Shown one piece after another: positions 37,061 to 54,572 of a DNA stretch of 64,000 bases. The stretch comes from Oceanispirochaeta sp. (GTDB lineage: Bacteria > Spirochaetota > Spirochaetia > DSM-2461). The first letter of the stretch is position 1; each line of letters opens with the position of its first letter. The position numbers and the translations under genes were made by a program. The DNA is taken from contig CAXXVE010000002.1 of the NCBI GenBank assembly GCA_963676905.2, forward strand, positions 241,761 through 305,760, in the 5' to 3' direction. Below the pieces are notes generated by a model that was not told the origin of the DNA, searched no databases, and saw nothing but the letters and a program-made list of their open reading frames with translations.

Positions 37061-37753
37061 TTATTTATTGATTTCATACCTTAAAATTTCATTTTTTCTT
37101 GGCACAGAATTATATTTTTTTACCCATTTATTTCTTTTTTTTACCTCATATGTTTTAAATGCAAATGGTATGCCTCGAGCAATTTTAAAATCATCAGTAT
37201 CCATGAATTGCATATGTAGATGTGGCATTAGGGAATTCCCTGAATGACCTAATTCCCCAATTTTATCATGTACATTAATTTTTTGACCTACTTCTAAATT
37301 TACAGATCCTTTTTTTAAATGCGCCAATAGAGCAAATTCATTCTCACTTATTTTAATCATTACATAATTTCCAGTAATGGATTTATGTGATACATCATTA
37401 CTAATGTATTGTTTTGTAACTTTTATAGTGTTTTTATAATCGGTAAAAATATTTACAGGATTTCTTTCTTCAATATTATTTTCTAAACCAACTACCACAC
37501 CGCTTACAGGAGATACAACTGTTTGTCCCCATCCATAAAAATCATGTAATTTTAATCCTTTAAATAGATATTGAAAAAAACTATTACGATATGTTTTTTT
37601 TAGCAGGTCATTTTCTTGAATCATTACAAAATCTATGGCATACGTCTCTCCAAAGCTATTTGTTCCATGGCTAGGGATATTTGATCCAGGTGTGTTTGGG
37701 GAATAATATATTCCCTCTAAAGGGAAAGAGACAATCATCATTTTATTATTCAA
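37061..37753 (-). CDS. M23 family metallopeptidase (distal cassette, no closing attC seen)
   Basis: SHG..YAIDF, GNYVMI, LAHLKKGS, GHSGNS..PHLHMQ. Confidence 0.85.
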   Translation of the reverse strand: MNNKMMIVSFPLEGIYYSPNTPGSNIPSHGTNSFGETYAIDFVMIQENDLLKKTYRNSFFQYLFKGLKLHDFYGWGQTVVSPVSGVVVGLENNIEERNPVNIFTDYKNTIKVTKQYISNDVSHKSITGNYVMIKISENEFALLAHLKKGSVNLEVGQKINVHDKIGELGHSGNSLMPHLHMQFMDTDDFKIARGIPFAFKTYEVKKRNKWVKKYNSVPRKNEILRYEINK

Positions 37754-37856
37754 TTAATTTTCTCCTGATTTATAACAACTTTAAATATGTATTAGGATAA
37801 TGAATCCAATTGGTATTATTGTCTTTGATCATTACTTCGTTAGAGCGCAAAGAGTT

Positions 37857-37955
37857 CAGCAACGACCGCATAAGCTATAAACCGTTAAGCTGGCGCATTT
37901 TGTGCGAATGCAGAAACTTTGACAGTAGGATTGTCGGTTTCATACGGAGTGATAT
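37857..37955 (-). repeat. Degenerate attC site (R'' ATATCAC instead of ATATAAC)
   Basis: Shares aagctggcg and gacagtagg blocks with the 39797 attC; inverse core mutated. Confidence 0.65.
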
Positions 37956-38072
37956 ACACTTATATACATATTTAATCGCAAGTTCAATAATACTCTCTAT
38001 TTGTCAGGAAATATATAATATAACTTTTCCTGTCAATAATTTCTTCTGTAGATTACAAACAGGAACAGGACT

Positions 38073-39257
38073 TTATCGCGTTGCTCTTTCTAAATATGTG
38101 ATTATCTCCTGAGATGCTGCTTTGCATCCGGGAGCATTTAAAAAAGAACGGGAAACTTTATAACAGTTATTCTTATAATCGCTGTTCTTAAAAATTTCCG
38201 TTATTGCCTTTTGAATGGTTTTTGACTGCAAGTTTCTCAATCTTATTCCGCACTTTAATTCCTCAATACGGAAAGCGACCTCTTCCTGTTCTGATTGAAA
38301 AGGGTAAACACAAAGCGGAACACTGTTAAACAGACCTTCATTTACACTGTTCATTCCGCCGTGCGTTACAAAGAGATCCGTATATTTGAGTATTTCTATC
38401 TGATTCACATGCTTTTTTACTACTACATTTTCCGGAAAGGTTCTTTTCATATCATCATCACAGGCACCAGATAATACAAGAGTACCGTACAAACCAGATA
38501 ATGACTTGATAATATCCGGTATACTATACATCTCTTTCCAGACAGTTCCCATGGATACATAAATAAAGGGGTGCGGGTATCGGGAGTAGTCTTCGGTATC
38601 CGGATCGTCATCCCTCCCGAAAATCATCGGCCCGATAAATCTGTATTTATCTTTATCGAAGGACTCTGAATAGGGCTGGAAATATTCTGAATTGTATACA
38701 ATATTCAGAGGTTCTTCATTCATCATCGAATTAATGAATCCCTGGGGGGCAATACCATGTCTTTTATACATTTCCTTTTGTATTTGACCGGCTTTTTTCA
38801 GATCCCTGATACCCTTTATTCCTGCTTTGCGGAAAAACACGATACTGTTTCTAAAATTCTTCACGTTGCTGTTGAAGGCAAATGTTGATATGGATGAGAT
38901 GGCCGGAATCCCGCAGATTGCAGCAGCATATCTGCCCCATACTGAGATTGAATCATGGATAATATAGTCAGGTTTTATTTGATTTATATCATCAATCAGT
39001 TTATCCAGAATACAGGCTGTTGTTTTGACTATATCATGATAAAGAGACGCCAGATTTTTTCCTATTTCAGATTTTCCGAATCCTTTGGAGAATGAATACT
39101 CTCTGTATTCTGCACCAGTAGCCTCTATTTTATCTTTAAACTCTTCAAGAGAATAATAGATGATTTCTTCCCCATTATTCACAAGTTCTTTTACAAGAGG
39201 TAAAGTCGGGTTTGTATGACCATGTGCCGGAATACTGAAAAAGACTGCTTTTGACAT
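38073..39257 (-). CDS. MGT family (macrolide/OleD-YjiC-like) glycosyltransferase
   Basis: IPAHGHTNPTL, YVSMGT, DLFVTHGGMNSVNEGL..PFQSEQ. Confidence 0.88.
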   Translation of the reverse strand: MSKAVFFSIPAHGHTNPTLPLVKELVNNGEEIIYYSLEEFKDKIEATGAEYREYSFSKGFGKSEIGKNLASLYHDIVKTTACILDKLIDDINQIKPDYIIHDSISVWGRYAAAICGIPAISSISTFAFNSNVKNFRNSIVFFRKAGIKGIRDLKKAGQIQKEMYKRHGIAPQGFINSMMNEEPLNIVYNSEYFQPYSESFDKDKYRFIGPMIFGRDDDPDTEDYSRYPHPFIYVSMGTVWKEMYSIPDIIKSLSGLYGTLVLSGACDDDMKRTFPENVVVKKHVNQIEILKYTDLFVTHGGMNSVNEGLFNSVPLCVYPFQSEQEEVAFRIEELKCGIRLRNLQSKTIQKAITEIFKNSDYKNNCYKVSRSFLNAPGCKAASQEIITYLERATR

Positions 39258-39634
39258 TCTACCTCCAGATAATCGAATGAAAGAGGATGTATATACCGAA
39301 AGGTTTATAGGAATGTATCAGTAGAAGAGTCTTGATTTCCAGTTTTTTCACTATGCCTTTTATATACAATGTGTGATCTTGTACCTTCCAAAGATATTAT
39401 AGACGGAAACTCTAATCAATGTCTTTAATAAGATATGCTATTCTAGTTCTTATGGCTTCCTAAGTTCATTGATACACGCTATTTATCAGGAAAAATATGA
39501 ATTTTCAGGAACACATAATAAATCAGAAATTCCGAGTAATTAACTTTTAAATGCGGTTTTAATTTATTTTTTTGAAATCATTAAGATAAGAATAATTTGA
39601 GAAATTTAGAAAAAATACAGAATATAAGATTTTT

Positions 39635-39790
39635 CTACCTTTCTAGTTGAATTCCCTCTTGCTCTAACCGTCTGACAGCCTCTCTACGGAAATCCTCCGC
39701 ATAGGCCTGAAATTTCTTCCGCGACATGTAAACACCCTCCATAATCAATCATAATCTAACTATAGTTGGTGTCCACTTTCTCAGGGGCAC
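39635..39790 (-). mobile_element. IS3-family left-end remnant (IRL plus 30-codon orfA fragment at 39727-39635)
   Basis: Minus strand TGTGCCCCTGAGAAAGTGGACAC, SD GGAGG, then MSRKKFQAYAEDFRREAVRRLEQEG..stop. Confidence 0.7.
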
Positions 39791-39796
39791 AGTGAT

Positions 39797-39906
39797 ATAT
39801 AACATTCTTTTAAGCTGCAGCTCGTAAGCTGGCGTGAAATCTGACTGCAAAGCAAAATAGCAGATTTCATGACAGTAGGGCTGACAGTATCAAAAGCTTG
39901 TTATAT
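39797..39906 (-). repeat. attC site, 110 bp
   Basis: atataac..gttatat cores, ctttt/aaaag stem with extrahelical C, internal tgaaatctg/cagatttca hairpin; 1 nt after the Fic stop. Confidence 0.9.
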
Positions 39907-39907
39907 T

Positions 39908-40828
39908 TCATTCTTTCAATTCTTTAACGTAGTCTTCTATTGCTTCTCGGGTTGTAAGCCATTCTTTATTAAGCTTTACTGCGGAAATTCTCCCTTTTCT
40001 TGCCAAGAGTGACAAATACTCTTGTGAATAATCACAGTATTCTGATGCCTCTCTTAAATTTATCAACCCTTGTTTCTCTGACGTATTTGGTTTAATGCTG
40101 TTCAGATATATTATCAGTGATCGTTCTATAGCGCGACCAATAAAATTCTCTAAGCTCTCTTCTTTACCTACATTGGCTTCATTTAATACTCTGTAATATT
40201 TCTTTCTATCTACTTTCAATATTACTGTTGGTGGAAAACCATGCTTCATTAGAATCAGATTCATCAGCAGCCGTGCTACTCTTCCGTTACCGTCTATAAA
40301 AGGGTGTATACAAACGAACTTATAGTGAAACTGTGCTGCTAAGATAGGAATTGGTAATGTATGCAGATTGGCATAATACCAGGTGAAAAGATCTGACATT
40401 AACGCTTTAACCTTAATTGCCTGAGGAGGAATTATCCTGGCTCCGACAATTCTAACATTATGGCGACGATATGCTCCTGCCTCGAGATCATCAATTCCTT
40501 TGAGTATTAATCTATGGAGTTCCCGTAGCACATCCTCTGTCAGTTCTGTGCTTTTAGAGATCAATGATTCTATGTATAGAATCCCCTTTTTATGGTTGAT
40601 TGCTTCAAGATGCTCATTAACAGTCCTTCCACCAATCGTAACACCTGTGTTGAGGACAATCTCTGTTTCATTGAGAGAAAGTGTATTTCCTTCTATTGCA
40701 TTTGAGTTGTAAGTCCATTCTAGAGCGAACTGCTCATTTAATTTTCTTACTATGGAGGGATTTAGTGGTCTGTGAGAGTCTAATTCTCTCTTTTTGCCTT
40801 CAATACTGTTTAATAGCTTATCTTCCAT
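39908..40828 (-). CDS. Fic protein (class II) with C-terminal excisionase-like HTH; cassette gene
   Basis: SNAIEGN inhibitory motif, HPFIDGNGRVAR, C-terminal LREASEYC..YLSLLARKG. Confidence 0.92.
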   Translation of the reverse strand: MEDKLLNSIEGKKRELDSHRPLNPSIVRKLNEQFALEWTYNSNAIEGNTLSLNETEIVLNTGVTIGGRTVNEHLEAINHKKGILYIESLISKSTELTEDVLRELHRLILKGIDDLEAGAYRRHNVRIVGARIIPPQAIKVKALMSDLFTWYYANLHTLPIPILAAQFHYKFVCIHPFIDGNGRVARLLMNLILMKHGFPPTVILKVDRKKYYRVLNEANVGKEESLENFIGRAIERSLIIYLNSIKPNTSEKQGLINLREASEYCDYSQEYLSLLARKGRISAVKLNKEWLTTREAIEDYVKELKE

Positions 40829-40856
40829 ATCGGTTCCTTGCGATTTTCATCTATCC

Positions 40857-40888
40857 GATATTGTAAGGCATAAATTAATTTCATGCAA
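40857..40888 (-). promoter_or_regulatory. Cassette-internal promoter TTGCAT-17-TACAAT overlapped by an imperfect palindrome
   Basis: Minus strand TTGCAT GAAATTAATTTATGCCT TACAAT immediately after the GTTATAT core. Confidence 0.65.
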
Positions 40889-40986
40889 ATATAACGCCGT
40901 TTTTAGCTGATTCCGTCAGTAGGCACGATTGTTGCGAATGCAAGAATCGTGACATCCCGACTGACAGCTTCAAAAGCTCGTTATGT
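40889..40986 (-). repeat. attC site, 98 bp
   Basis: atataac..gttatgt; tttt-tagctg/cagctt-c-aaaa; cacgatt/aatcgtg hairpin. Confidence 0.9.
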
Positions 40987-40991
40987 ACCCC

Positions 40992-42068
40992 TTATTTCTT
41001 TAGTAACTCATAAAGGGGTCTGTTTACATAAATGATTTCTTTTCCTAAGCGAAAAGATTCAAGTACTCCTATTGCTTCTAATTCTTTGAGATATTTGCTG
41101 GCTGTTCTTCTTTCTGCTATTCCTGCATCTACCAAATAAGCAATTTTAGTGTATGGCTGAATGAACAATAACTCAACCAATTCTTTTGAATATATTGTCT
41201 TAGGAAGTTTTTCTTTGCATATATCAATTGTTTGATCTAGCAGACTTGCTATCGATGAAATTATTCCATATGTCTCCTTGGCAGTCTCTTCCACTGCTTT
41301 CAACATATAGATTATCCACTCCTCCCAGTTTTCATTTACATGCATGTCCTGTAGGAGTCGATAATATTCTGATTTATTCCTGATAATATAAGAGCTAAGA
41401 AACAGTATCGGTGAATCTAATAATCTCTGAAGGACAAGATATAGTACATTTATTATTCTGCCTGTCCTTCCGTTGCCATCATAAAATGGGTGAATTGATT
41501 CGAACTGGTAGTGAATGATTGCCATTTTGATCAGTGGGTCTGTACCATCTTCTTGATGGATGTATTTCTCAAGATTTGATAATAGATCAAGTATGACATG
41601 TTCATTGTCAGGTGGTGTATATATCACGTCACCGGTTCTATCATTTACTAAGCTGGTTCCTGGTAGTTTTCTGAAACCAGCCGAATTTTGCTCCAGCTCT
41701 TCCTGAATCGAGAGAATTGTATTTATCCGAAGTAAGTTGCTTTCTTTAATTTGCTTATATCCAAGCCATAGCGCAGATCTATAATTAAGAACCTCTTTGG
41801 TATTTGGATCTATATTTGTTTGTTTTGCCACCATAGCCTTATATAGGTCATCCTGGGTTGTTATGATATTTTCTATTTCAGAACTGGCTGATGCTTCTTT
41901 CAGGATTATTGAACTTAATAAAATTGAATCATTCGGTAGTAATGAGCAATAACCCTTTAACTTTGCTAACTCCCGGTTAGCACTGATTGCCTGCTTGAGA
42001 ACACTCTTTGACTCAATATCATATTTTGGTGGTAGTTTTGGTAATTCGTTGTTTGCTTGCTTACTCAT
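40992..42068 (-). CDS. Fic protein with Fic_N domain and C-terminal wHTH (SoFic-like); cassette gene
   Basis: EASASSEIENI, HPFYDGNGRTGR, AERRTASKYLKEL. Confidence 0.92.
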   Translation of the reverse strand: MSKQANNELPKLPPKYDIESKSVLKQAISANRELAKLKGYCSLLPNDSILLSSIILKEASASSEIENIITTQDDLYKAMVAKQTNIDPNTKEVLNYRSALWLGYKQIKESNLLRINTILSIQEELEQNSAGFRKLPGTSLVNDRTGDVIYTPPDNEHVILDLLSNLEKYIHQEDGTDPLIKMAIIHYQFESIHPFYDGNGRTGRIINVLYLVLQRLLDSPILFLSSYIIRNKSEYYRLLQDMHVNENWEEWIIYMLKAVEETAKETYGIISSIASLLDQTIDICKEKLPKTIYSKELVELLFIQPYTKIAYLVDAGIAERRTASKYLKELEAIGVLESFRLGKEIIYVNRPLYELLKK

Positions 42069-42071
42069 ATA

Positions 42072-42171
42072 ATGTACATAATATCATCTTTCATGTACAT
42101 GTCAATCTATCGTGTGCATGTTTATAGGATTTTTGCCCACGTCATCGTTCTCATGTGCATTCTGTGTACAT
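42072..42171 (-). promoter_or_regulatory. Cassette-internal promoter (TTGACA-16-TATTAT) with five RTGTRCAT boxes
   Basis: Boxes at 42072, 42093, 42112, 42153 and 42164 (+ strand). Confidence 0.6.
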
Positions 42172-42274
42172 AACTCCCAAATCAATTGCGTTTTCGTCCC
42201 AAAGGGGTGGCGGACAATTTGCGTAAGCAAATTTGTGTGCCAAAGAAAACGTCAATTGCATTTGATTGTTATCT
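42168..42274 (-). repeat. attC site, 107 bp
   Basis: acataac..gttatct; aaat-caattg-cgttttc / gaaaacg-T-caattg-C-attt with two extrahelical bases. Confidence 0.95.
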
Positions 42275-42289
42275 GGTCTTTCATCTTCT

Positions 42290-43078
42290 TTATTCAGTTC
42301 CATATGAACTATTTAAATATCTAACAACGCTTTGTATAGATTTACTATTTGGATCAATAAAATCCATATGAAAACCTCCCTCTATTTCAACAAAGGAGAA
42401 CTGAGTGTCAGAACTATCACTAATTTCCGCAAACTTTCTTGTCATTTCAATTGATAGATATTCATCGTTATCGCCATGGAAAATAGTTATTGGAGTTTTT
42501 ATCGGAAGCAGTTCAATTGGTGAGGCATTTTTATATCTTTCGAGGTTTTCTTCTGGAGAACATTGTAGTAATTCTTTAACAGCTTGATTTCCGGAATTAT
42601 TTCGATAACAGCCTATTAAATCTAAAATCGGTGCTAATCCAACAATATGTCTTGGATTGATCTCTACTTTATTTTTTTTAATATTATTATTAGTTCCTAA
42701 CCATATTGCTAAATGTCCACCAGCTGAATGACCCATTAAAATAATTTCATTCAAATCGATTTTATCATAAGTTTTTTTTAATTGAATTAAATGATTAATA
42801 GAGTCTATTGAATCTTCAAATGGATCTATCCATTTCCGATTAGATGATCCGGTTCGCCGATATTCAATATTCCATACAATATAGTTTTCTTGTAATAATT
42901 TTTCACAGACTTGATCCATTTGGTGAAGATCATATGGCATTTTCCAAAAACCACCATGAAAGAGACATATTGTCCCTTTTATATATCCTTTGGGAATATA
43001 TAAGTTACCATATTGGGAAATGTCCTTACCATATGCTGAATTAATTAATGTATTTTCTTCAATAATATTCAATTGCAT
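42290..43078 (-). CDS. alpha/beta hydrolase (esterase/lipase, BD-FAE-like); cassette gene
   Basis: FHGGFW, NIEYRR, GHSAGGH, HGDND, GFHMD. Confidence 0.88.
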   Translation of the reverse strand: MQLNIIEENTLINSAYGKDISQYGNLYIPKGYIKGTICLFHGGFWKMPYDLHQMDQVCEKLLQENYIVWNIEYRRTGSSNRKWIDPFEDSIDSINHLIQLKKTYDKIDLNEIILMGHSAGGHLAIWLGTNNNIKKNKVEINPRHIVGLAPILDLIGCYRNNSGNQAVKELLQCSPEENLERYKNASPIELLPIKTPITIFHGDNDEYLSIEMTRKFAEISDSSDTQFSFVEIEGGFHMDFIDPNSKSIQSVVRYLNSSYGTE

Positions 43079-43131
43079 GCACCTTCGATTCTTGATTATC
43101 AACTTCTTTTATTTCTTTAATATTTTTCTCA

Positions 43132-44440
43132 TGTTCTCTCCACTACATAGTTACCAAAAGTCCAACCTCTTCAGTTACACACGCGGAATGAATTCATAGT
43201 CCAGTATATCATATATTTTAAGCTCATGTTCATTCAGATAGCCCAAGAAGAACTCTCGGAACCAGACACGATAGATTCCATTTCCTATGTCTTTGAATCC
43301 AAGTTTTTTCTCTTTGAATGCTGTCCCTACAAATATACTGTCTTTCTTACCGACTCTGATTATTCCATTCTTGCAGATATATCGTACTTTGTATTCAGGC
43401 GGGTAATGCCACTCTTTTATCTCATTCGGATACCGTCTTTTAGAACGTTCATAAACTGTTTTGGGTGTAACCATACCAAGGGCTTCATGAGGTCTTTCCT
43501 CGTTATACTCTTTGGTAAATCTGTTGAACTTTATCTGCTGACTTCTCAGTGATTTACCTGGTTCAATGCATGCTTCTGCTTTCAATTCTCTATGCATTCT
43601 TTCATGACTTCCATTCTGCTGCGGAGAGGCCGGATCGCTGAACACCGGATAGATCCCAAGTTCCATTAACCAAACAGAAAATTGTGTATACCGACCAAGG
43701 GATCTTATGTTGGCAAACGGGGAACCATTGTCTGTGTGCAACTGTTCGGGAAGTCCATATTCTTTGAATACAGCCTCAAAAACAGGCTTAGACTGCGTTA
43801 AATTGGGCCTGGAGAGCCCTTTTATGCGTATGATGTACTTACTGAAGTTATCGCAAATGGTAAGCGGATAGCAGTACTTCTTGTCTCCAGTCCTGAACTC
43901 ACCTTTATAGTCGGCACTCCATATCTCATTACAATGATCGGCTATGAACTTGGGATAGCGTTTCTCAATATGCACATGTCTTTTACGTTCCGGAATGAGA
44001 TCATTCTTTTTGAGTATGTTGTTTATTGTGGACTTGCAGGGAATATGAGAATAAATGCCATCCTTCTCAAGGCGCCATCGTATTTTTTTCCCACCCCATC
44101 GTTTATGCTGACTTCTTATTTCAAGAATACGTTCTTCAATCGCTGCTGGAGTTTTATTCGGTGAATGGTGAGGAGCACGGGATTTTGGTTGAAGTCCTGC
44201 CATTCCCTCTTCCTGGTATCGTTTAATGTATTTGTAACCAGTAGTCCTGCTGATACAAAAATCTTTACATAGGCCAGAGAAAGTAAATCGATCTGTACTC
44301 CAAATTAAGATGAACTCTTCTTTTTGATCCATAATCGTTTTCTCCATTAAAGGCATGATCGTCTCCTTTATTGTAAACCATCTGCCTTTAACTGTAATTT
44401 ATCTACTTGGATCTTTGTCCACTATGTTATTAATCCGTAC
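43132..44440 (-). mobile_element. IS481-like insertion sequence, about 1.3 kb
   Basis: Imperfect IRs ACATAGTGGACAAAGATCCAA / ACATAGTTACCAAAAGTCCAA; ctca duplicated at 43128-43131 and 44441-44444 (tentative TSD). Confidence 0.75.
43175..44356 (-). CDS. DDE transposase (IS481 family, rve core)
   Basis: HTH, WSADYKG, TDNGSPF, PQQNGSHERMHRELK, YNEERPHEAL. Confidence 0.9.
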   Translation of the reverse strand: MPLMEKTIMDQKEEFILIWSTDRFTFSGLCKDFCISRTTGYKYIKRYQEEGMAGLQPKSRAPHHSPNKTPAAIEERILEIRSQHKRWGGKKIRWRLEKDGIYSHIPCKSTINNILKKNDLIPERKRHVHIEKRYPKFIADHCNEIWSADYKGEFRTGDKKYCYPLTICDNFSKYIIRIKGLSRPNLTQSKPVFEAVFKEYGLPEQLHTDNGSPFANIRSLGRYTQFSVWLMELGIYPVFSDPASPQQNGSHERMHRELKAEACIEPGKSLRSQQIKFNRFTKEYNEERPHEALGMVTPKTVYERSKRRYPNEIKEWHYPPEYKVRYICKNGIIRVGKKDSIFVGTAFKEKKLGFKDIGNGIYRVWFREFFLGYLNEHELKIYDILDYEFIPRV

Positions 44441-44448
44441 CTCAATCC

Positions 44449-44556
44449 AGATAACGCCTTCATAACCCGCACGGCGTACATGGCGCTGTTTTTGTCGAGC
44501 GGAGCGACTTACAAAAACTGTTACATAGCCGGGTCGGGTTCATGAAATTGTTATAT
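44449..44556 (-). repeat. attC site, 108 bp
   Basis: agataac..gttatat; ttcat-aacccg / cgggtt-C-atgaa; gtttttgt/acaaaaac hairpin. Confidence 0.95.
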
Positions 44557-44567
44557 GTCATCCATTT

Positions 44568-45614
44568 TCAATTGCTAACGATTACAATCGAATGAACTAC
44601 ATCTCCAAATTTATTATCCGGCATTGGCTCTTCAAGTTCTATCCATTGATCATTTACCCAATATCCAGGATAAAATCGCCTATTTGCAGATCTATGTCCT
44701 GCAGTTATTACATTATCTCTATATACAACGATAGTATTTAGGTAGTATTTTTCTTCTTCTGGTGCGAGCTCAATCCATTCCTCATTTTTCCAATAGCCAT
44801 TTCTATTAACAGCTAAATAAATATCTTCTTTCACCTTAATCATTTCTCGAACTGAATTATATGAATCTTTATCAGGAGATTTAATCTCATTCCATTCTTC
44901 ATTCAACCAATACCCTGAAATCATTTCTTTATTTTCATTTTTGCAAAATCCGAGCAAATATAGATCATTATCAATGATTTTGATTGAACTGACTTCACCA
45001 TTTGTCATATTTCGTGGAACTGGTAAATCTTTCCATTCGCTATTAATATAATACCCTGGCGAATCACTAAATTCGGACATAGCTTGATAGCTTCCGGTCC
45101 AATATATATTATTATTGTAAATTGTAAATGAACTTAAAATTCGGTTATCGGTTAAAGGATCAGATAGTGATGTCCAACTTCCGTTTTTCCAATAGCCTGA
45201 TACAACATTACCTAACTCATTATAATAAGAACCAGCTGCATATATATTATCTTTTTCAAGAATAACTGTTTCAATAAATCCCTTCCAGCTCTCTTCTGGT
45301 AAGTCTAACTCATTCCATTTGCCATTTATCCAATAACCAGGTATCCAACCTTGTCCTTCAACACGAATATATCCTCCAACAACAATAAATTCTTTATTTG
45401 CTGCGAGTGCATATGTTCCGCAATTATCCATTTGATCAGGATTCTCAATATCTATCCATGTACCATTTTCCCAATAACCAGGAATTGTTTTTCCTGTCAT
45501 ATCTGGAGCAGAACCTAATGCATATATTGAATAAGAGTAGTCACACCCAGAAATGAATATAAAAACAGTGATTAATAGTAAAAAATAAGTGAACGTTTTT
45601 ATTTCTTTTAACAT
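44568..45614 (-). CDS. Lipoprotein with about 7 GYWxNGxWxxL repeats (beta-propeller-like); cassette gene
   Basis: Lipobox ISG-C; repeats GYWENGTW, GYWINGKW, GYWKNGSW, GYWLNEEW, GYWVNDQW; start ATG 45614. Confidence 0.8.
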   Translation of the reverse strand: MLKEIKTFTYFLLLITVFIFISGCDYSYSIYALGSAPDMTGKTIPGYWENGTWIDIENPDQMDNCGTYALAANKEFIVVGGYIRVEGQGWIPGYWINGKWNELDLPEESWKGFIETVILEKDNIYAAGSYYNELGNVVSGYWKNGSWTSLSDPLTDNRILSSFTIYNNNIYWTGSYQAMSEFSDSPGYYINSEWKDLPVPRNMTNGEVSSIKIIDNDLYLLGFCKNENKEMISGYWLNEEWNEIKSPDKDSYNSVREMIKVKEDIYLAVNRNGYWKNEEWIELAPEEEKYYLNTIVVYRDNVITAGHRSANRRFYPGYWVNDQWIELEEPMPDNKFGDVVHSIVIVSN

Positions 45615-45634
45615 AAAATCTCCAATTTTTGTCC

Positions 45635-45733
45635 ATATAACACCCTTTTTAGCTGCAGGAGGTGGCAGCGTGCAAAATGAATGCATATACCTGGAACCTG
45701 ACCCCGACTGTCTGCTACAAAAGATTGTTAAGT
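45635..45733 (-). repeat. attC site, 99 bp, closing HUH cassette copy B
   Basis: atataac..gttaagt; ctttt-tagc / gcta-C-aaaag; identical to 51215-51313 beyond the crossover. Confidence 0.9.
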
Positions 45734-46604
45734 CAGCATCATTTATAAGAAATTCAATTATTCTGCGGACTTACCTGAATAGTCTTTTCTTCTGAGAAAA
45801 TAGTAAACGAGAGGCGTTCATAAGTAAAGGAGTTTAAAAATTTCAGAGAATCTGTTTCTGAGGTATTATATTTGCAATATGGCTGCTTTTGGAGACAGTC
45901 CTCGATTATGAATCTGTCTTCGTAGATGTTCATGCTATTCCTAAAAGTTGGCCGTGGCCTGGTGGCCAGCAATACTTTGACAGATATAATCTTACTATCA
46001 GCGGAAGAGGTTTCCCTCGACCAAAGACATCGATAGTTTCCAAGGGTGTATCGCATTCTGGACATGTCTCTTCGTCATCAATGATTTCTTTAACCCCACC
46101 AAGCTCTTCCACACGGATTCTTTCCAGTGTTTCAACTTGCCGGTTAGAATACAATCCATAGTTCCTGATCGTGACTGTTCCTTTCGGTGGTACATGATTA
46201 AAGTAGCGTTCTCTGAATATCCGCATACTGAGTACTGTCTTTCTCGTTTCACCACGATATCTCTCGTAAATTGTCGCGGTATCGTTATAGTTATCGAAAT
46301 CAATGTCTTCTATATCCGAAATAAACCCACAGATGGATTTAGACAGGTAATCAACAATATTGTCTCCATTGAACTTATGGATGGCCGGATAAACAGTGTA
46401 CTCCCTATCCTGGCAGTTTCTTGTTTCAAAGCGGACAGTATTTCTTTTCACACCGGACAATTTCTTAATAAAATGCGGAAGTGTGAGCAACGCTGTTAAA
46501 GTTCCTATAATCAGCGGCGAAAAAGTTCCGCTTTTACAGACATAAAAAGGGGCAAATATCCTAAAGTAGGGTTACCACACCAACTACGAAAGGAACCTGC
46601 CCCT

Positions 46605-47885
46605 ATGTGTCTAAAGGAAGATCGCATGCACGTTGCGCGCATCATGGCCAATCAAGGCCACACACAAAAGTACATAGCCGAGTATCTCGGCGTCAGCGAC
46701 CGAATGGTCAGAAAATACCTGACCCCCGAGTTCGGAACCCACCCCCGGAAATCCCGGGAAAGCATCCTTAAACCATTCCATCCCATCATAGAAGATACAC
46801 TGGAAAATGATCCATACTTTAATTTGGTTTATCTTCACGAAAGACTGCAAAAAGCCGGTTACTCAGGCAAAATAACAATCCTTAGAGACTATGCCCGGCA
46901 GTATAGAAAGAAACTCATCGAGAAGGCTGTCATCCGGTTTGAGACAGAGCCTGGCCGTCAGGCTCAGGTGGACTGGAAAGAGTGCGGCAAAATGGAAATT
47001 GACGGCCAGATCCAGAAGGTCTATGCCTTTGTCATGTTGATGGGTTACAGCCGTATCCCCTTTGTGCAGTTTACCCTGGACATGACTTCAGCAACGCTAC
47101 TCCAGGCCCATCTGAAAGCATTCCAATACTTTGGTGCCGTTCCACAGGAAATCCTTTATGACAACATGAGAACGGCCTGGTACAACAGCGGCGGTGTCTG
47201 GCAGGTAAACTCACAACTCCTGGAGTTCGCTTCAGCCTGTGGCTTCAGACCTCTTCGCTGTCAGGTTCGCAGACCTCAGACGAAAGGAAAAGTTGAGCGT
47301 TTCATCGGCTATCTGGGGCACAGCTTCCTGATCCGTGAAGAGGCTTTGAAGTCATGTACTCTACAGGATCTTAATCAATCCGTTATCGAGTGGATCTCTA
47401 GAGTCGTGGAAACACAAATGAGTCAGTTCCGGCAGACACGGAAAGAGCGCTTTGACTATGAGAAGCAGTTTATGAATCCCTGGAATCCGGGGGCGGCTCC
47501 CGATGTGAGACTTGTGAAAGAACTGCTAGTTTCTCGGGAAGGCGTAATTCGCTATGAAACCAATACATACAGTGTCCCTGCTGATCATATCGGACAGACT
47601 GCAACGCTGAAGATTGACACACTGGAGAGAACCGCCGATGTCACCGTTGCTGGAAAGGTCGTAAGGTCTGTGGATATTCTGGCGAAAGGCGCTAAATCAG
47701 TCTCAATCCGCAAGGCCGACCGGGACTCTCTTCTGAAACGGTGGAAACGGGAGAACCGGCAGAGCCTAAGGGCAATTGTAGGCCGTTCAGAAAAAAGGGA
47801 TACTCCTCACTCATCGCTGATTCAGACTGAAGTCGAAATACGCCATCCCAATCACTATGATCAGATAATCGGAGTTGGCGCATGA
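46605..47885 (+). CDS. istA: IS21 transposase
   Basis: RFETEPGRQAQVDW, ILYDNM, RPQTKGKVER. Confidence 0.95.
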   Translation: MCLKEDRMHVARIMANQGHTQKYIAEYLGVSDRMVRKYLTPEFGTHPRKSRESILKPFHPIIEDTLENDPYFNLVYLHERLQKAGYSGKITILRDYARQYRKKLIEKAVIRFETEPGRQAQVDWKECGKMEIDGQIQKVYAFVMLMGYSRIPFVQFTLDMTSATLLQAHLKAFQYFGAVPQEILYDNMRTAWYNSGGVWQVNSQLLEFASACGFRPLRCQVRRPQTKGKVERFIGYLGHSFLIREEALKSCTLQDLNQSVIEWISRVVETQMSQFRQTRKERFDYEKQFMNPWNPGAAPDVRLVKELLVSREGVIRYETNTYSVPADHIGQTATLKIDTLERTADVTVAGKVVRSVDILAKGAKSVSIRKADRDSLLKRWKRENRQSLRAIVGRSEKRDTPHSSLIQTEVEIRHPNHYDQIIGVGA

Positions 47886-48646
47886 ACGTACTCAGGGAGA
47901 CCATTGAAACCCGCTTGAATGAGCTGGGACTTGAGTTCATGGCTGCAGGACTGGAAAGCTATCTGGAAGCTCAGTCTCATACCGAGAATACGCTGACACA
48001 ATCAATTGCAGACCTGTTGGAGCTGGAGTATATTCCCCGGAAAGAACGAGCTGCCAAGAGTCGTCTGAAGCTCTCAGGAATGCCCTGTATCAAGCTGCTA
48101 GAAGACTTTGATCCGGCGTGGCTTAAGGGCGGTCTGACCGCCAGTCAGTTAGCCGATCTTTCTAGTTTGGCATTTATTGAAAGGAAGGAGAATCTGGTCC
48201 TGATGGGACCCAGCGGTCTGGGAAAGACCCACCTGATGCTGGCCCTGGCTCACAAGGCCTGTCTGAATGGTTTTACGGTGTGGTACACAAGCTGCATCGA
48301 CCTGATGGAGAACCTCACCAATGCTCGTGAACAGGGGCGATTAAAGCGGCGGCTAACCTGGTTACGGAAACCTCATTTGATCCTGGTCGATGAAGTCGGC
48401 TACGAGAACCTGACCAAAGAACAGGCCAACCTGTTTTTTCAGATGGTGAATACACGCTACGAACAGGGAAGCGTGATAATCACGACGAATAAACCCTTCG
48501 GTCGTTGGGCTGAGATCCTGGGTGATGAGGCCATTGCTACGGCGACCATCGACAGGCTGCTCCATCATGCTCATGTATTGAGCCTCAAAGGTGATTCATA
48601 CCGGATGAAAGACCGGTTGAAAATAGGGATCGTTGATCCTGTTTAA
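47882..48646 (+). CDS. istB: IS21 AAA+ ATPase helper
   Basis: GPSGLGKTH, ILVDEVGY, ITTNKPF..W, IDRLLHH, GDSYR. Confidence 0.95.
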   Translation: MNVLRETIETRLNELGLEFMAAGLESYLEAQSHTENTLTQSIADLLELEYIPRKERAAKSRLKLSGMPCIKLLEDFDPAWLKGGLTASQLADLSSLAFIERKENLVLMGPSGLGKTHLMLALAHKACLNGFTVWYTSCIDLMENLTNAREQGRLKRRLTWLRKPHLILVDEVGYENLTKEQANLFFQMVNTRYEQGSVIITTNKPFGRWAEILGDEAIATATIDRLLHHAHVLSLKGDSYRMKDRLKIGIVDPV

Positions 48647-49352
48647 TTTTACCCAAAAGCGGAACTTTTAAACCGATGAATTCAGGAACTTTTTAGGCGT
48701 TGTTGACAGCGGAAGCAGAGTTTCCCGTACTGTATCACAGATAATAGAGTATTTCATTGAAGGATAAGATTCGAACCAGTCATTCTCTGCGTTGACTCCT
48801 CCATCCGTGACGATACAGTGCATATGCGGTTTATAGGCAAGACCGACACTATGGCTTTGGAAGACAAGTATTACCCCAGGGGTTATCCCTGATTCTTTGC
48901 ACATATTCTTGAATCCAAGATCTACCGCATGGAAAAACGAACTGATGAACTGCCGACGATCTATCAGCCATAGCGTATTCATTTCTTCTGGGAGAGAGAC
49001 TATCAGATGATAATGCCCCATGGGTAATATCTTGGCGTGCATTTTACGGTTCCACTTTGCCTGATTCTTTTTAGAGCAATTCGGGCAACCCCGTTGATTG
49101 CAGGGATTGTATAAAACTGTATGGGTATGACATTTTGGGCAGTAGACGACACGTCCTCCCAAATCGATTGTACGGCAGGATAGAATATTGCTTGCGGCTT
49201 GTGCCTGTTCTTTATCTAATAGAGCTCCCGGCGTGGTTGCCCATATTTCGACCTGTGACATAAAATCCCCCATTGCCATGCAATGGGGAACTGCTGAAAA
49301 CAGTTTAGTGCTTCAATTCTTCAGGATTTTTTTTGATTTTTTTCTCATGTCG

Positions 49353-49463
49353 ACTTAACGCCCTTTTGAGCTGCAGCTCGTTTACTGGCGTGAAATCTGC
49401 CTGCGAAGCAGAACAGCAGATTTCATGATCAGTAGAGCTGACTGCTCCAAAAGATTGTTACAT
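49353..49463 (-). repeat. attC site, 111 bp
   Basis: acttaac..gttacat; ctttt-gagc / gctc-C-aaaag; tgaaatctgc/gcagatttca hairpin; R'' overlaps the stop codon. Confidence 0.95.
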
Positions 49464-50221
49464 GTCAATTTCATTCTTTATTTTATTCTTATCAATAAGT
49501 ACGAATCTACAATAAGTGGTCAGTGTTAATAGTAAACCAGATATAATTGCTAGAATAATTAAGAGTAATACATAACGTAATGTATTTGTCCCTAATTTTT
49601 CAAAAATTGTATTAATTTTTAACATAGATGATATAAATGAACTTAAAACACCCCACACCCATGAAACAAAACCTAATATAATCGAGAGAACAATTGTTGT
49701 ATCGAAATGCTCCTTTACTAGATTTAAACTTTTTTTCCAAATCTTAAGTAAATTTAATTTTTCTGTATCCACAAAAGTCACGATATAAAATCCTGTTATA
49801 TTTATTATAATAAACGCGAGCGTATCTATAGTCATTATTAAATAATATATAGCGGATGGGATATTTTTACCCGCCAATAAAGTAGGAACAAATTTTAATG
49901 CAACTATTATCATTTGGTAAGGTATATACACTTGAACTAAGAATCTAAATATTTTCTTAATACAATTTTTTCATAATTGTTATATTTTTCTTGATAAAAG
50001 TGAATTACAAATGTAAGAAAAATAATATTAAAAAGTAATGAAAATGTGCTTCCTGCTAACGGTGGTGTATAAATAGATAGCATTTGATAAAATAAATTAT
50101 TACTAAAATAATAATCCAATATAAAAATCGGTATATAAAGCACAAGAAGATAAATAATAATCTTTTTTATATCGCTTTTAATTATTTTTGTACTGTCTTT
50201 TATGATATCAATTGAATTCAT
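49458..50221 (-). pseudogene. Frameshifted multi-pass membrane protein cassette (ORFs 50221-49937 and 49931-49458)
   Basis: One extra A near 49955 would join ..KIVL to KKIFRFLVQVYIPYQ..; both halves are hydrophobic. Confidence 0.7.
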
Positions 50222-50244
50222 TTTTTTTCCTTTTCTCTATGTAC

Positions 50245-50414
50245 ATGTAACATCCAATTAACCTGCGTACCGGCCCGGCCCAGCCGGGTATTGGCGATTT
50301 TCTTGCTTTCCAGTGTATCCCCTTAACTGTTATACGGAAACAACTTTTTGTTGTTCCTCCAGTTTCTGCAAGAAACTTGACAATAGGAACGACAGGTTCA
50401 ATTGTTTGTTATGT
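50245..50414 (-). repeat. Unusually long attC site, 170 bp
   Basis: atgtaac..gttatgt; caatt-aacctg-cgt / acg-A-caggtt-C-aattg; R'' contains the upstream stop codon. Confidence 0.85.
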
Positions 50415-51152
50415 GGTGATTTGTTCATTCCTCATATTCTCAACATTGTCTATAAGTGCCAATATTTCTTTTTTATTATTTGTTGGATTTAGATATTGAT
50501 CCAAAAGGGATATATAATATTCACTGTAAGTGAAATTTATGGCACATAAGTCATTACACGATTCATATATTGTCTTATGAAAAATATTATATTCTTTCAT
50601 TAACTCAGGTCTAAAGGATTTAATAAGATCTTTACCAACCAATCTGGATATCTTTCTTATTTCATTTTCTTTTACTGTCTGAGCAAGACATTTTCTGTAA
50701 TGGCCTATTAAATATTGCGTGTCTGGAGCCCAAAGTTTTGCTAACTGTTTTCCGTCAATAATTATTTCTTTTTTATAGTATTTATTATTACCGTATAAAC
50801 AAAGTGAATCAGAGCATACTATCAGCCAGTAATCATAGTTTTCTTGAAGATATTTTTCATTTACAATATTAATATCTATACCGGTTAAGAATTTAATTTC
50901 AGAATTAATTTTCTTTTCATTCTTCAATAGTTCATTTGATTTGATTGTATCATTATCTTTAGTTAGAATACATAAAACATCTAAGTCTGAGACTTCAGGA
51001 ATTTCTTCACCTCTTGAAACAGAACCCTGCAGACGAATTTCTAATATTTTATCTCTATAACAACTTTTTAGTATTTTAACTGCTGCATCTATATACTTCA
51101 TATATTGAGGTTTTATTTTTTTATATTCAGAAGTATTCTTCAATAATATCAT
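50409..51152 (-). CDS. Nucleotidyltransferase (Pol-beta superfamily); cassette gene
   Basis: LQGSVSRGE..SDLD motif plus a helical C-terminal domain. Confidence 0.82.
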   Translation of the reverse strand: MILLKNTSEYKKIKPQYMKYIDAAVKILKSCYRDKILEIRLQGSVSRGEEIPEVSDLDVLCILTKDNDTIKSNELLKNEKKINSEIKFLTGIDINIVNEKYLQENYDYWLIVCSDSLCLYGNNKYYKKEIIIDGKQLAKLWAPDTQYLIGHYRKCLAQTVKENEIRKISRLVGKDLIKSFRPELMKEYNIFHKTIYESCNDLCAINFTYSEYYISLLDQYLNPTNNKKEILALIDNVENMRNEQITT

Positions 51153-51214
51153 AGTGATTAATTGATTCCTAACTTATTTGATACCTATTATTTTTTCATT
51201 AAATTTCTCTATCT

Positions 51215-51313
51215 ACATAACACCCTTTTTAGCTGCAGGAGGTGGCAGCGTGCAAAATGAATGCATATACCTGGAACCTGACCCCGACTGTCTGCTACAA
51301 AAGATTGTTAAGT
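51215..51313 (-). repeat. attC site, 99 bp, closing HUH cassette copy A
   Basis: acataac..gttaagt with the same stem as 45635-45733. Confidence 0.9.
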
Positions 51314-51509
51314 CAGCATCATTTATAAGAAATTCAATTCTTCTGCGGACTTACCTGCATAGTCTTTTCTTCTGAGAAAATAGTAAACGAGAGGCGTTCA
51401 TAAGTAAAGGAGTTTAAAAATTTCAGAGAATCTGTTTCTGAGGTATTATATTTGCAATATGGCTGCTTTTGGAGACAGTCCTCGATTATGAATCTGTCTT
51501 CGTAGATGT

Positions 51510-52625
51510 TCATGCTATTCCTAAAAGTTGGCCGTGGCCTGGTGGCCAGCAATACTTTGACAGATATAATCTTACTATCAGCGGAAGAGGTTTCCCTCGA
51601 CCAAAGACATCGATAGTTTCCAAGGGTGTATCGCATTCTGGACATGTCTCTTCGTCATCAATGATTTCTTTAACCCCACCAAGCTCTTCCACACGGATTC
51701 TTTCCAGTGTTTCAACTTGCCGGTTAGAATACAATCCATAGTTCCTGATCGTGACTGCTCCTTTCGGTGGTACATGATTAAAGTAACGTTCTCTGAATAT
51801 CCGCATACTGAGTACTGTCTTTCTCGTTTCACCACGATATCTCTCGTAAATTGTCGCGGTATCGTTATAGTTATCGAAATCAATGTCTTCTATATCCGAA
51901 ATAAACCCACAGATGGATTTAGACAGGTAATCAACAATATTGTCTCCATTGAACTTATGGATGGCCGGATAAACAGTGTACTCCCTATCCTGGCAGTTTC
52001 TTGTTTCAAAGCGGACAGTATTTCTTTTCACACCGGACAATTTCTTAATAAAATGCGGAAGCAGAGTTTCCCGTACTGTATCACAGATAATAGAGTATTT
52101 CATTGAAGGATAAGATTCGAACCAGTCATTCTCTGCGTTGACTCCTCCATCCGTGACGATACAGTGCATATGCGGTTTATAGGCAAGACCGACACTATGG
52201 CTTTGGAAGACAAGTATTACCCCAGGGGTTATCCCTGATTCTTTGCACATATTCTTGAATCCAAGATCTACCGCATGGAAAAACGAACTGATGAACTGCC
52301 GACGATCTATCAGCCATAGCGTATTCATTTCTTCAGGGAGAGAGACTATCAGATGATAATGCCCCATGGGTAATATCTTGGCGTGCATTTTACGGTTCCA
52401 CTTTGCCTGATTCTTTTTAGAGCAATTCGGGCAACCCCGTTGATTGCAGGGATTGTATAAAACTGTATGGGTATGACATTTTGGGCAGTAGACGACACGT
52501 CCTCCCAAATCGATTGTACGGCAGGATAGAATATTGCTTGCGGCTTGTGCCTGTTCTTTATCTAATAGAACTCCCGGTGTGGTTGCCCATATTTCGACCT
52601 GTGACATAAAATCCCCCATTGCCAT
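51510..52625 (-). CDS. IS91-like HUH (Y2) endonuclease/transposase, intact, in a 1484-bp cassette
   Basis: Zn domain CRT.DLGG..CPKC..YNPCNQRGCPNC, YHLIVSLP, HUH PHMHC, DYLSKS, HVPPKG..IRNYG. Confidence 0.88.
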   Translation of the reverse strand: MAMGDFMSQVEIWATTPGVLLDKEQAQAASNILSCRTIDLGGRVVYCPKCHTHTVLYNPCNQRGCPNCSKKNQAKWNRKMHAKILPMGHYHLIVSLPEEMNTLWLIDRRQFISSFFHAVDLGFKNMCKESGITPGVILVFQSHSVGLAYKPHMHCIVTDGGVNAENDWFESYPSMKYSIICDTVRETLLPHFIKKLSGVKRNTVRFETRNCQDREYTVYPAIHKFNGDNIVDYLSKSICGFISDIEDIDFDNYNDTATIYERYRGETRKTVLSMRIFRERYFNHVPPKGAVTIRNYGLYSNRQVETLERIRVEELGGVKEIIDDEETCPECDTPLETIDVFGRGKPLPLIVRLYLSKYCWPPGHGQLLGIA

Positions 52626-52698
52626 GCAATGGGGAACTGCTGAAAACAGTTTAGTGCTTCAATTCTTCAGTGAATTTTTCTGATTTTTTCTCATGTCG

Positions 52699-52846
52699 AC
52701 TTAACATAATTTATTCGTTGTTCTATATAATTCCCAGATTCACCCGGACACATGTTGAAGTGTATAGCGATTCAATGATATCCGGCTGATAATTCAGTAT
52801 AAGTAGGTTATATCCACTGTTATGCTGACTCAGTATAATTCTAGCA
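52699..52846 (-). other. Candidate array-head site (attI-like or decayed attC) with possible Pc-like extended -10
   Basis: GTTAAGT core at 52705-52699; tcagtataa direct repeats at 52794 and 52830; TGcTAGAAT at 52846-52838. Confidence 0.45.
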
Positions 52847-52916: not shown

Positions 52917-54572
52917 TTAATCCAGAATTACGCCTTCCCAGGGTTTGAGGACAAGTTCATTCAGTTCTTCTATCTCTCTGTGCCCCGATGTCGAAAGCTG
53001 GGGAATCAGGGGGCGGGGGAGGGGAATGCTGTGGCTCCTGGGGCTGATATTCAAATAGATATACAGTTCCCGGCTCTCTGACTTGCGGGTGTATGCCAGG
53101 ATGGTCTTCGGGCTGTCCAGCAATTTGAGGGAACCGGATTTAAGAGCGGAGCTGGAGCGGCGGAACTTTAAGAGGGCTTTATAGAAGTTCAGGAGGGAGG
53201 ATGAATCCTTTGCCTGCCGTTCCACATTGATCCTTCTTCTCTCTGTGCTTACTGGAATCCAGGGTTTGTGATCCGAGAATCCCCCGTATTTGCTGCCGTC
53301 CCACTGAAGGGGAGTCCGGCACCCGTCGCGGTTCAGGCTGCCGTGGGTCATCTTATTGAAGACAGTAAAAAGAACATCAGGCAGAAAGCGGTAGGCATGG
53401 CTCACAGGGTCCATGGAGATACTCCGGGGCAGGGCCGCCTGGCTCATGCCTATCTCTTCACCGTAGTAGCTGACAGGAATGCCCCTGGCCGTATGCTGAA
53501 GGAGGGCCTGGAGGCGGAGGAGCCGTCTGCTGCCGAGGGTCGTCATCCGCCGCATTCTGTCGTGGTTGGCAAAGACCCAGGTTGGAATCCAGGGTTCGGG
53601 GAAGAACTCTTCATACTCTTTGATGAGTTTTTTAAGCGCCGGAGCCCTGAAGGGGGTGTAGATGCTTTTAAACAGGAAGGCCGCATGGAGTCCGTTGGGC
53701 TCTTCCTCCCCTGTAAACTCCTTCATCTCCTTCAAGGTGCCGAAGGTCTCTCCAATTAGAAATCTTTCATCATACTCCTCCATCAGGGCACGGAGCTCTC
53801 TGGTGAAACCTATGGTCTCGGGAAGGTTTTCTATCATCTCGGTGGAACGGAAGAGTTTGTGGTTGCTCTCGCCAGTGGGGACAAGCTGAAAGGAGAAGGG
53901 GTTGTCCCTGAACTCGGCATCCTCATATATGGCGCCGATGATATCCAGACGGAATCCGTCCACTCCCTTCTCAAGCCAGAAGCGGAGGACATTGAACATC
54001 TCCTCCTTTACTTCCGGGTTTCTGTAATTCAGATCGGGCTGAAAGGGGAGGAACGCAGCCCAGTACCACTGGTCAGTGCGCTTGTCATACTGCCAGCCGC
54101 TTCCCTTGACCTGGCTTAACCAGTTGTTGGGGGGCTTGTTTCTGCCCTTGCCGTCCTTCCATATATACCAGTCCCTTTTGGGATTGTCCTTTGATGACGA
54201 TGACTCTATGAACCAGGGGTGCTTGTCGCTGGTGTGGTTCATCACCATATCAAGGACTATTTTCATACCTCTGCGGTGAACCTCTTTGATAAGGTGTTCA
54301 CAGTCCTTCATGGTACCGTATTCGGGGGCAATGGCTCTGTAGTCGGATATGTCGTAGCCGAAGTCCTTTTGCGGGCTGGCAAAGAAGGGGGAGATCCAGA
54401 TGGTCTCGAATCCAAGATCCTTTAAGTAATCCAGCCGGGAGATAATACCGGGCAGATCACCTATGCCGTCTCCGTTGCTGTCCTGAAAGGAACGGGGATA
54501 AATCTGATAGATGCTTGTCTCTTTCCACCAGTGGTTCTGCATAGGCCTTTCCTGAAAGTTGAATCTACTCAA
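52917..54572 (-). CDS. GH13 alpha-glucosidase / oligo-1,6-glucosidase
   Basis: YQIYPRSFQDSNGDGIGDL, DMVMNHTS, GFRLD, GET, NHD, YYGEEIGM. Confidence 0.93.
   Translation of the reverse strand: MSRFNFQERPMQNHWWKETSIYQIYPRSFQDSNGDGIGDLPGIISRLDYLKDLGFETIWISPFFASPQKDFGYDISDYRAIAPEYGTMKDCEHLIKEVHRRGMKIVLDMVMNHTSDKHPWFIESSSSKDNPKRDWYIWKDGKGRNKPPNNWLSQVKGSGWQYDKRTDQWYWAAFLPFQPDLNYRNPEVKEEMFNVLRFWLEKGVDGFRLDIIGAIYEDAEFRDNPFSFQLVPTGESNHKLFRSTEMIENLPETIGFTRELRALMEEYDERFLIGETFGTLKEMKEFTGEEEPNGLHAAFLFKSIYTPFRAPALKKLIKEYEEFFPEPWIPTWVFANHDRMRRMTTLGSRRLLRLQALLQHTARGIPVSYYGEEIGMSQAALPRSISMDPVSHAYRFLPDVLFTVFNKMTHGSLNRDGCRTPLQWDGSKYGGFSDHKPWIPVSTERRRINVERQAKDSSSLLNFYKALLKFRRSSSALKSGSLKLLDSPKTILAYTRKSESRELYIYLNISPRSHSIPLPRPLIPQLSTSGHREIEELNELVLKPWEGVILD

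Follow-up and report, generated by a model that had tools for sequence, protein, structure and literature searches.

The Locus and Its Setting

Between a VWA/FlgO gene on its left and an alpha-amylase gene on its right, the DNA considered here carries an array of gene cassettes bounded by palindromic recombination sites of the attC type, which are characteristic of integrons. The window analyzed (64,000 bp) comprises bases 241761-305760 of contig C2, the smaller of the two contigs of the genome assembly (C2, 323,845 bp; C1, 4,485,787 bp). The array consists of an attI-like head, eight bounded cassettes, and two degenerate ones. An earlier note on this stretch, made from the sequence alone, had described the cassettes as AT-rich and their genes as co-oriented. 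The first of these observations is borne out, with G+C of 0.29-0.39 between 37.0 and 52.9 kb (excluding a 2.2-kb IS21 insert of 0.44-0.50), as compared with 0.45-0.58 across most of the remaining window and 0.49 for the whole genome. The second holds for the sizeable open reading frames (ORFs) of the array region, all of which are on the - strand, but not for the inserted IS21 element, which lies on the + strand. No tyrosine recombinase flanks the array on either side, as had also been proposed, and the integron integrase model TIGR02249 finds nothing on contig C2 when all six frames are searched with stops read through.

The host is a spirochaete outside Treponema. The FlaA family, a marker of the periplasmic flagella of spirochaetes, is represented by three flagellar sheath genes in the host genome and by none in 14 control genomes, and the closest relatives of its integron integrase come from a Spirochaetales metagenome-assembled genome (68%), Candidatus Marispirochaeta associata (58%), and Rectinema (52%), so that the earlier suggestion of a spirochaete origin stands. 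Contig C2, for which plasmid status was considered, has no match to ParB or DnaA, and its G+C is the same as that of C1.

The attC Sites

The intergenic gaps of the array hold imperfect palindromes of 98-170 nt that start with AnnTAAC and end with GTTAnnT on the + strand. A covariance model, termed R1, was built from an alignment of eight window sites and then searched against the window and the genome. The eight sites score 63-102 bits on the + strand of the 64-kb window (E 6e-13 to 1.5e-22) and only 12-27 bits on the - strand, values that are circular because the same sites trained the model. Within the window, R1 returns nothing else below E = 1e-6 except a partial match to a remnant. Elsewhere in the genome it picks up 25 further sites that were outside the training set, and the 34 matches in the genome as a whole, 33 of them full-length, occur in six clusters only. 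Their lengths fall into a class of ~100-115 nt and a class of ~175 nt.

In the consensus structure of the eight-site alignment, 5 bp of outer stem (TAAC+N paired with N+GTTA) are separated by a 2x2 internal loop from a further stem of 5 bp; one unpaired base then bulges from the 3' arm ahead of a last stem of 6 bp, and compensatory changes occur at 9 of the 16 pairs. As single-stranded DNA, each of the eight sites forms an R box (the outer TAAC/GTTA stem) and an L box (the inner stem), with a loop of 2x2 to 3x3 between them and bulges on the 3' side of the inner stem. Failure to fold had been named beforehand as an observation that would speak against attC sites; R/L pairing and bulged bases were found instead. 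Fold z-scores relative to shuffled sequence are -3.6 to -7.5 in six of seven distinct sequences, and in the six sites folded both ways the + strand is more stable than the - strand by 1-4 kcal/mol, with its bulges on the 3' arm, where they are expected for the bottom, recombined strand of an attC site.

Covariation across a broader set of sites points the same way. In 27 sites from four arrays, 95.6% of alignment cells pair as compared with 74% in shuffles, and double-sided changes number 84 as compared with 27, neither value being reached in any of 500 shuffles; this alignment was fitted to the model, which favors structure, although the margin is nonetheless large. The covariation score is 0.549, as against 0.04-0.12 in slid controls. 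The AAC and GTT triplets are present in each of the eight sites of the window and, across the genome, in nearly every one of the 33. At the bulge in the inner stem, 9 nt 5' of GTT, 33 of 33 full genome sites have a C, while the stems that flank it vary widely in a compensated manner.

Nine hairpins had been proposed in the earlier note. Eight are upheld by fold, covariation, and the boundary rule described below; the ninth, placed at 37857, is a remnant of an attC site. It matches R1 only in part (37876-37944, model positions 16-101, 36.6 bits), is without the outer boxes, and does not fold as attC.

Cassette Boundaries and Orientation

The proposal that the start heptamer of each of eight cassettes complements the inverse core closing that cassette proves to be exact. 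In 8 of 8 instances a site's right heptamer, when reverse complemented, gives precisely the left heptamer of the site that follows, a count that includes the last site of the series, which pairs with ACTTAAC at the array end (52699). By an exact permutation test, only 8 of 40,320 permutations match this rule (P = 2e-4), and the two heptamers are complementary within a single site in only one of the eight. Complementarity across cassettes is what crossover at G/TT would produce (the slash marks the cut). As judged by reading the listed heptamers, the rule is kept at most other adjacent pairs in the arrays of this genome and at nearly every adjacent pair in the array beside the integrase gene, intI.

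The heptamer rule is symmetrical and therefore leaves the orientation of the cassettes unfixed. Orientation is settled by a duplication, in which the segment 51215-52704 recurs at 45635-49358 with identities of 99.5% and 98.9% on the two sides of an inserted IS21 element. The duplicated unit takes in the attC on its low-coordinate side and leaves out the one on its high-coordinate side, and identity between the two copies ends at both core sites; because of this inclusion and exclusion, the cassette, followed along the - strand, has the order TTAAGT-ORF-attC-G. In integron terms, the - strand is the top or coding strand, and the attC hairpins fold from the bottom, or +, strand. The general form of the cassettes is TTxxxx-ORF-attC-G, with their ORFs in the canonical orientation.

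An attI-like Site at the Head of the Array

The block at the right end of the array has its crossover GTT at 52703-52705 (- strand), where the first cassette opens with TTAAGT. It is 87% identical to C1:3064016-3064158, a segment 105 bp upstream of the intI start codon, 89% identical to C1:2350751-2350890, and 75% identical to a block next to intI in the nearest species (G001), where that gene is intact. These four copies share three conserved blocks, the last of which reads GGAATTATATAGAACAACGAA.AA..TAT/GTT, and in all four the similarity stops just past ...TTAT/GTT. As similarity ends just past GTT in the manner of attI, the window array has an attI of its own without an integrase. The genome holds three attI copies in total, two of them orphan, and one intI. 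The second orphan copy, at C1:2350751-2350890, heads another integrase-less array, downstream of SatD-family genes. Beyond the attI-like block of the window, the alpha-amylase gene starts after 75 bp. A sigma-70 scan of the attI region found promoter-like sites no more often than in shuffled sequence, so that no promoter is claimed.

These observations bear on whether the repeats are integron sites at all, rather than palindromes of the repetitive extragenic palindromic or miniature inverted-repeat transposable element kind, or terminators lying between co-oriented genes. The heptamers do depart from the RYYYAAC/GTTRRRY form, and the sites are located just downstream of genes, as terminators would be. 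The chance that this explanation is correct is nevertheless judged to be vanishingly small, as it would have to accommodate complementarity that is complete across cassettes and nearly absent within sites, an identical gene-plus-site unit in five contexts, the confinement of the same repeats to a few clusters, one of which forms the array beside a bona fide intI, and an attI junction that ends at GTT. Moreover, an Rfam search of the array gave no family match.

The Integrase and Its Locus

The earlier note left a choice between a CALIN (cluster of attC sites lacking integron integrases) and an integron with its intI elsewhere, and the genome agrees with that expectation. TIGR02249 has a single match above its cut-off of 265 bits, at C1:3062697-3063626 (389.5 bits), beside an array of the same attC type and at least about 1.4 Mb from the window array, whichever way the contigs join. 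The translation has the catalytic residues and contains the IntI-specific segment PALERKYSNASKEWSWFWLFP (ALERKY...WSWFWLFP), as known from IntI1. On C1, intI lies on the - strand and the cassettes run away from it on the + strand, a layout shared with the nearest species, in which the orthologous intI is intact (403 aa); the locus is syntenic between the two species, with the same neighboring amidohydrolase gene in G001. A tyrosine recombinase beside the array at 2.39 Mb of C1 was considered as a second integron integrase and rejected, being of phage type and adjoining a terminase gene.

Within the genus, a model search finds this attC type in 8 of the 10 other genomes; in the family it is found in 18 of 24 genomes, and in the class in some. 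At the window locus itself, by contrast, the nearest relative lacks these genes; the same genes in a fixed order in relatives, without these repeats, had been named as the finding that would count against a cassette array. In G001 the orthologues of the amylase (83-90% protein identity) and VWA/FlgO (83%) genes are on different contigs, with no attC within 16-18 kb of either, and the array is therefore considered lineage-specific and located at a synteny breakpoint. Nucleotide homology between G001 and the window ends at 52924 and 36855, within about 130 bp of the array ends. The amylase orthologue of G001 (C10:67938-69742) is interrupted by a TAG stop.

A breakpoint of this kind raises the question of whether the array was built at its orphan attI or was once part of the main integron and became detached by chromosomal rearrangement, through insertion sequence (IS) elements or recombination between repeated cassettes. 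IS21, an IS481-like element, and a further repeat fragment all lie inside the array, and rearrangement has been proposed as a route to CALINs in genomes that bear intI (Cury et al. 2016, PMC4889954). However, neither end of the array carries an IS, the main integron on C1 keeps its own attI, and a simple recent split cannot yield three attI copies that have diverged to 87-89% identity. An origin by splitting is accordingly regarded as one possibility with perhaps a minority claim, on the doubtful side.

Interpretation

The region is very probably a CALIN that is headed by its own attI copy and forms part of a genome-wide integron system of a non-Treponema spirochaete. It is termed a CALIN because the array has no integrase; the largest gap between its sites is 3.6 kb, within the 4-kb limit set for a cluster of two or more attC sites, and contig C2 carries neither intI nor an intI pseudogene, of which the definition allows none within 10 kb. 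A complete integron would have intI at hand, whereas here the amylase gene lies beyond attI and intI is on the other contig, and the absence of a transposition module flanking the array sets it apart from mobile (class 1-5) integrons. In the mechanism proposed, IntI made from the C1 locus would act in trans, excising cassettes by recombination of attC with attC, and the excised cassettes would re-enter the genome at G/TT in one or another of its three attI sites. Both recombination and cassette expression are predicted here from sequence.

Several points weigh against this interpretation. The sole intI has an in-frame TAA at codon 183, so that present-day mobilization in trans would require the TAA to be an error of the assembly. 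Neither recombination nor a circular cassette nor an empty site has been observed. The two leftmost "cassettes" are without a functional attC, and the duplicated attC at 45635 and 51215 folds weakly (z -1.6 to -1.9). In addition, the core heptamers AnnTAAC/GTTAnnT do not fit the strict consensus, and the extrahelical base is a C where classical and Treponema attC sites have a protruding G.

The nonsense codon comes after the SAM-like N-terminal domain and before the catalytic domain of an intI that is otherwise full length and without a frameshift; the nearest species has Ser at this position. Because the only integrase gene carries a stop that separates DNA binding from catalysis, the system is probably frozen today; cassette copies with 99% identity speak for recent activity. 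Comparison of these copies (~99%) with the attI copies (87-89%) suggests that cassette traffic went on long after the attI platforms diverged, and, again at the level of sequence, that the nonsense mutation in intI is recent. The orphan attI may have arrived by duplication of the platform followed by loss of intI, or by rearrangement.

How much of this system could still be functioning is a separate question. If the TAA codon were an assembly error, a strain polymorphism, or a tolerated stop, the array would remain active and IntI would be shuffling cassettes among three attI sites and six arrays. That the gene is intact apart from the one stop and scores far above its family cut-off would be in keeping with such activity, as would the near identity of the cassette copies relative to the more diverged attI copies and the retention of all conserved attI blocks by the orphan site. 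Yet a stop between domains would require two pieces to work apart, and an assembly in only two contigs suggests good quality. Nonsense-inactivated intI genes are moreover common in sedentary integrons. Continued activity is judged improbable. A broader proposal, offered as speculation that is more apt to be wrong than right, is that of a distributed integron, in which three attI sites would serve as independent capture platforms for one trans-acting IntI, the orphan attI sites would be kept by selection, and an IS91-family HUH cassette and the IS481-like element would be specialized passengers.

Relation to Known Integron Systems

CALINs are common, about half occur in genomes with intI elsewhere, and they average five sites (Cury et al. 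2016). Like them, the window array has attC sites, eight in number, at spacings below 4 kb, no intI or intI pseudogene on its contig, IS elements inside, and intI elsewhere in the genome. It is slightly longer than the reported average and is headed by a conserved copy of attI, a feature that is neither asked for nor mentioned in the definition of CALINs. With sedentary chromosomal integrons such as the Vibrio cholerae superintegron, the system shares a chromosomal intI at a species-syntenic locus, an AT-rich array, one species-typical attC family, cassettes of toxin-like, defense, and unknown functions, and the duplication of some cassettes. It differs in that its arrays are much smaller (8-13 sites each) and spread over six loci, its attC sites are of two length classes, and its intI is nonsense-interrupted.

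Among spirochaetes, Treponema has been stated to be the sole clade with integrons, and attC sites without intI are on record in Treponema phagedenis (Wu et al. 2013, PMC3607928). The Treponema integrons likewise belong to this phylum, are chromosomal, and include transposases among their cassettes. In contrast, their intI is transcribed toward attI, whereas here intI is divergent from the cassettes, as in the classical layout, and the attC sites of T. denticola and T. vincentii are 63-68 bp long with a protruding G, as opposed to 98-170 nt with a bulged C. A Spirochaetes attC class has also been modeled by a covariance model (Ghaly et al. 2021, PMC8352920); the sites here may belong to this phylum-typical class of attC structure and sequence. 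A search of the literature library found no paper on integrons in the Marispirochaeta/Sediminispirochaeta group.

The host genome and its family show that integrons exist outside Treponema, as later surveys already implied, and add a well resolved integron system of classical layout, at six loci, in free-living spirochaetes. The conserved orphan attI copies provide a test case for capture at attI without an adjacent integrase. The understanding of integrons is unchanged by these findings. The array represents an element of known kind, clearly but without unusual features of consequence.

Cassette Content

The features of the window array and of the related loci on C1 are collected in Table 1.

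Table 1. Features of the cassette array in the window and of the integron system elsewhere in the genome (C1: positions on contig C1; other positions refer to the window)
Feature	Position	Strand	attC (+ strand, R1 model)	Content or basis
attI-like site, array head	52699-52841 (143 bp)	-		similarity to C1 and nearest-species copies
Cassette 1	51215-52704	-	51215-51313	intact IS91-family transposase gene (51510-52625)
Cassette 2	50245-51220	-	50245-50414 (long, 170 nt)	nucleotidyltransferase-domain protein (50409-51152)
Cassette 3	49353-50250	-	49353-49463	two small hydrophobic ORFs (49937-50221, 49458-49931)
Cassette 4	45635-49358	-	45635-45733	second IS91-family copy, gene split by IS21 (45930-46490, 48668-49279)
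Cassette 5	44449-45640	-	44449-44556	predicted lipoprotein with GYWxNGxW-type repeats
Cassette 6	42168-44454	-	42168-42274	alpha/beta-hydrolase (42290-43102); IS481-like insertion
Cassette 7	40889-42173	-	40889-40986	SoFic-type Fic protein (40992-42068)
Cassette 8	39797-40894	-	39797-39905	Fic-domain protein with C-terminal helix-turn-helix (39908-40828)
Cassette 9, degenerate	37876-39802	-	remnant, 37876-37944	macrolide-family glycosyltransferase (38073-39257); repeat fragment
Possible terminal cassette	37061-37753	-		AT-rich M23 peptidase gene, G+C 0.30; Peptidase_M23 40.9 bits
IS21-family insertion in cassette 4	46482-48708	+		istA 46605-47885, istB 47882-48646
IS481-like insertion	about 43126-44445			transposase 43175-44356; rve, rve_3, LZ_Tnp_IS481 domains
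intI gene	C1:3062694-3063911	-		TIGR02249
attC cluster beside intI	C1:3066230-3082800			at least 12 sites
Other attC clusters	C1:2351105-2357666; C1:2391623-2401426; C1:3679915-3685835; C1:348471-351256; window array
IS91-family cassette copies	window 51215-52704, 45635-49358; C1:2351271-2352773, C1:3075550-3079295, C1:2391787-2392511

The transposase of cassette 1 scores 187.5 bits against NF033538 (cut-off 125) and has Zn_Tnp_IS91 and Y2_Tnp domains; the attC of this cassette scores 85.8 bits with R1. The protein of cassette 2 matches PF01909 at 31.8 bits and ANT families only weakly (~22 bits, as compared with cut-offs of 340-500), and its long attC folds at -35 kcal/mol (z -7.5). The small ORFs of cassette 3 reach the cut-offs of no family in profile scans of Pfam, PADLOC, and NCBIfam; the attC that closes them scores 102.3 bits (fold z -6.4). 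In cassette 5, whose attC scores 83.8 bits, the longest ORF spans 44568-45686, and translation probably begins at an ATG (45614) that follows the ribosome-binding site GGAGA. Both this start and the lipobox were read from the sequence, and Pfam, NCBIfam, and PADLOC gave no match for the protein. The hydrolase of cassette 6 is of the BD-FAE type (92.5 bits).

Two cassettes encode Fic proteins. That of cassette 7 scores 385.9 bits against the PADLOC SoFic model and has Fic_N, Fic, and SoFic-like_C domains, although its score of 445 bits against NF046030 is under the cut-off of 550; an exact-match protein look-up gave no record. The protein of cassette 8 scores 82.9 bits for Fic and 114 bits for PADLOC PDC-S04, and its attC scores 102 bits. 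The glycosyltransferase of the degenerate cassette 9 scores 271.5 bits against TIGR01426 (cut-off 260), and the right heptamer of the remnant beside it is mismatched to the next site. Cut-offs for resistance families are reached by no cassette except for the match to this generic subfamily model of macrolide-family glycosyltransferases. The SoFic protein, the second Fic protein, the macrolide-family glycosyltransferase, and the nucleotidyltransferases fit the view of sedentary integrons as stores of defense and toxin-like genes. For the M23 peptidase gene at the left end, no attC is recognizable and R1 has no match to its left.

Transposable Elements within the Arrays

A gene for an IS91-family (HUH/Y2) transposase is packaged as an ordinary attC-bounded cassette in five copies distributed over four arrays. 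Two of the copies are intact, two are split by IS21, and one is truncated. Their neighbors differ, with attI or various attC sites before the cassette and TTATGT, TTATAT, or TTCTAC after it; in the two window copies, whose boundaries were inspected, the break falls exactly at G/TT.

The IS21 element of the window has rve/Mu-transposase and IstB_IS21 (248.7 bits) domains, 54-nt terminal inverted repeats, and a 7-bp target duplication, GCGGAAG, and is 100% identical to C1:964360-966586. An IS91-family gene on C1 also carries IS21 in the same orientation, at about 3076200-3078450. Movement of an IS21-split IS91 cassette between arrays as one composite was considered and rejected, as the two insertions are 23 bp apart and have different duplications (GCGGAAG and TATCAC). 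Two independent IS21 hits in one short stretch suggest an insertion hot spot.

A fragment of 167 bp at 39637-39803, which abuts the left heptamer of the attC at 39797, shares 91% identity with C1:4110850-4111018. This fragment probably represents one end of a further insertion sequence, the family of which is left unnamed because its 30-aa peptide has no Pfam match.

All three genome copies of the IS481-like element are inside cassette arrays, the third being a fragment at C1:2393719-2394033. The window element is 99% identical to C1:3080672-3082031, and neither of these full copies has a visible target duplication. Both lie 4 nt after an attC R' heptamer, in cassette orientation, in two different cassettes. 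Targeting of attC is known for the IS1111-attC group, and the pattern seen here resembles it, but in another IS family.

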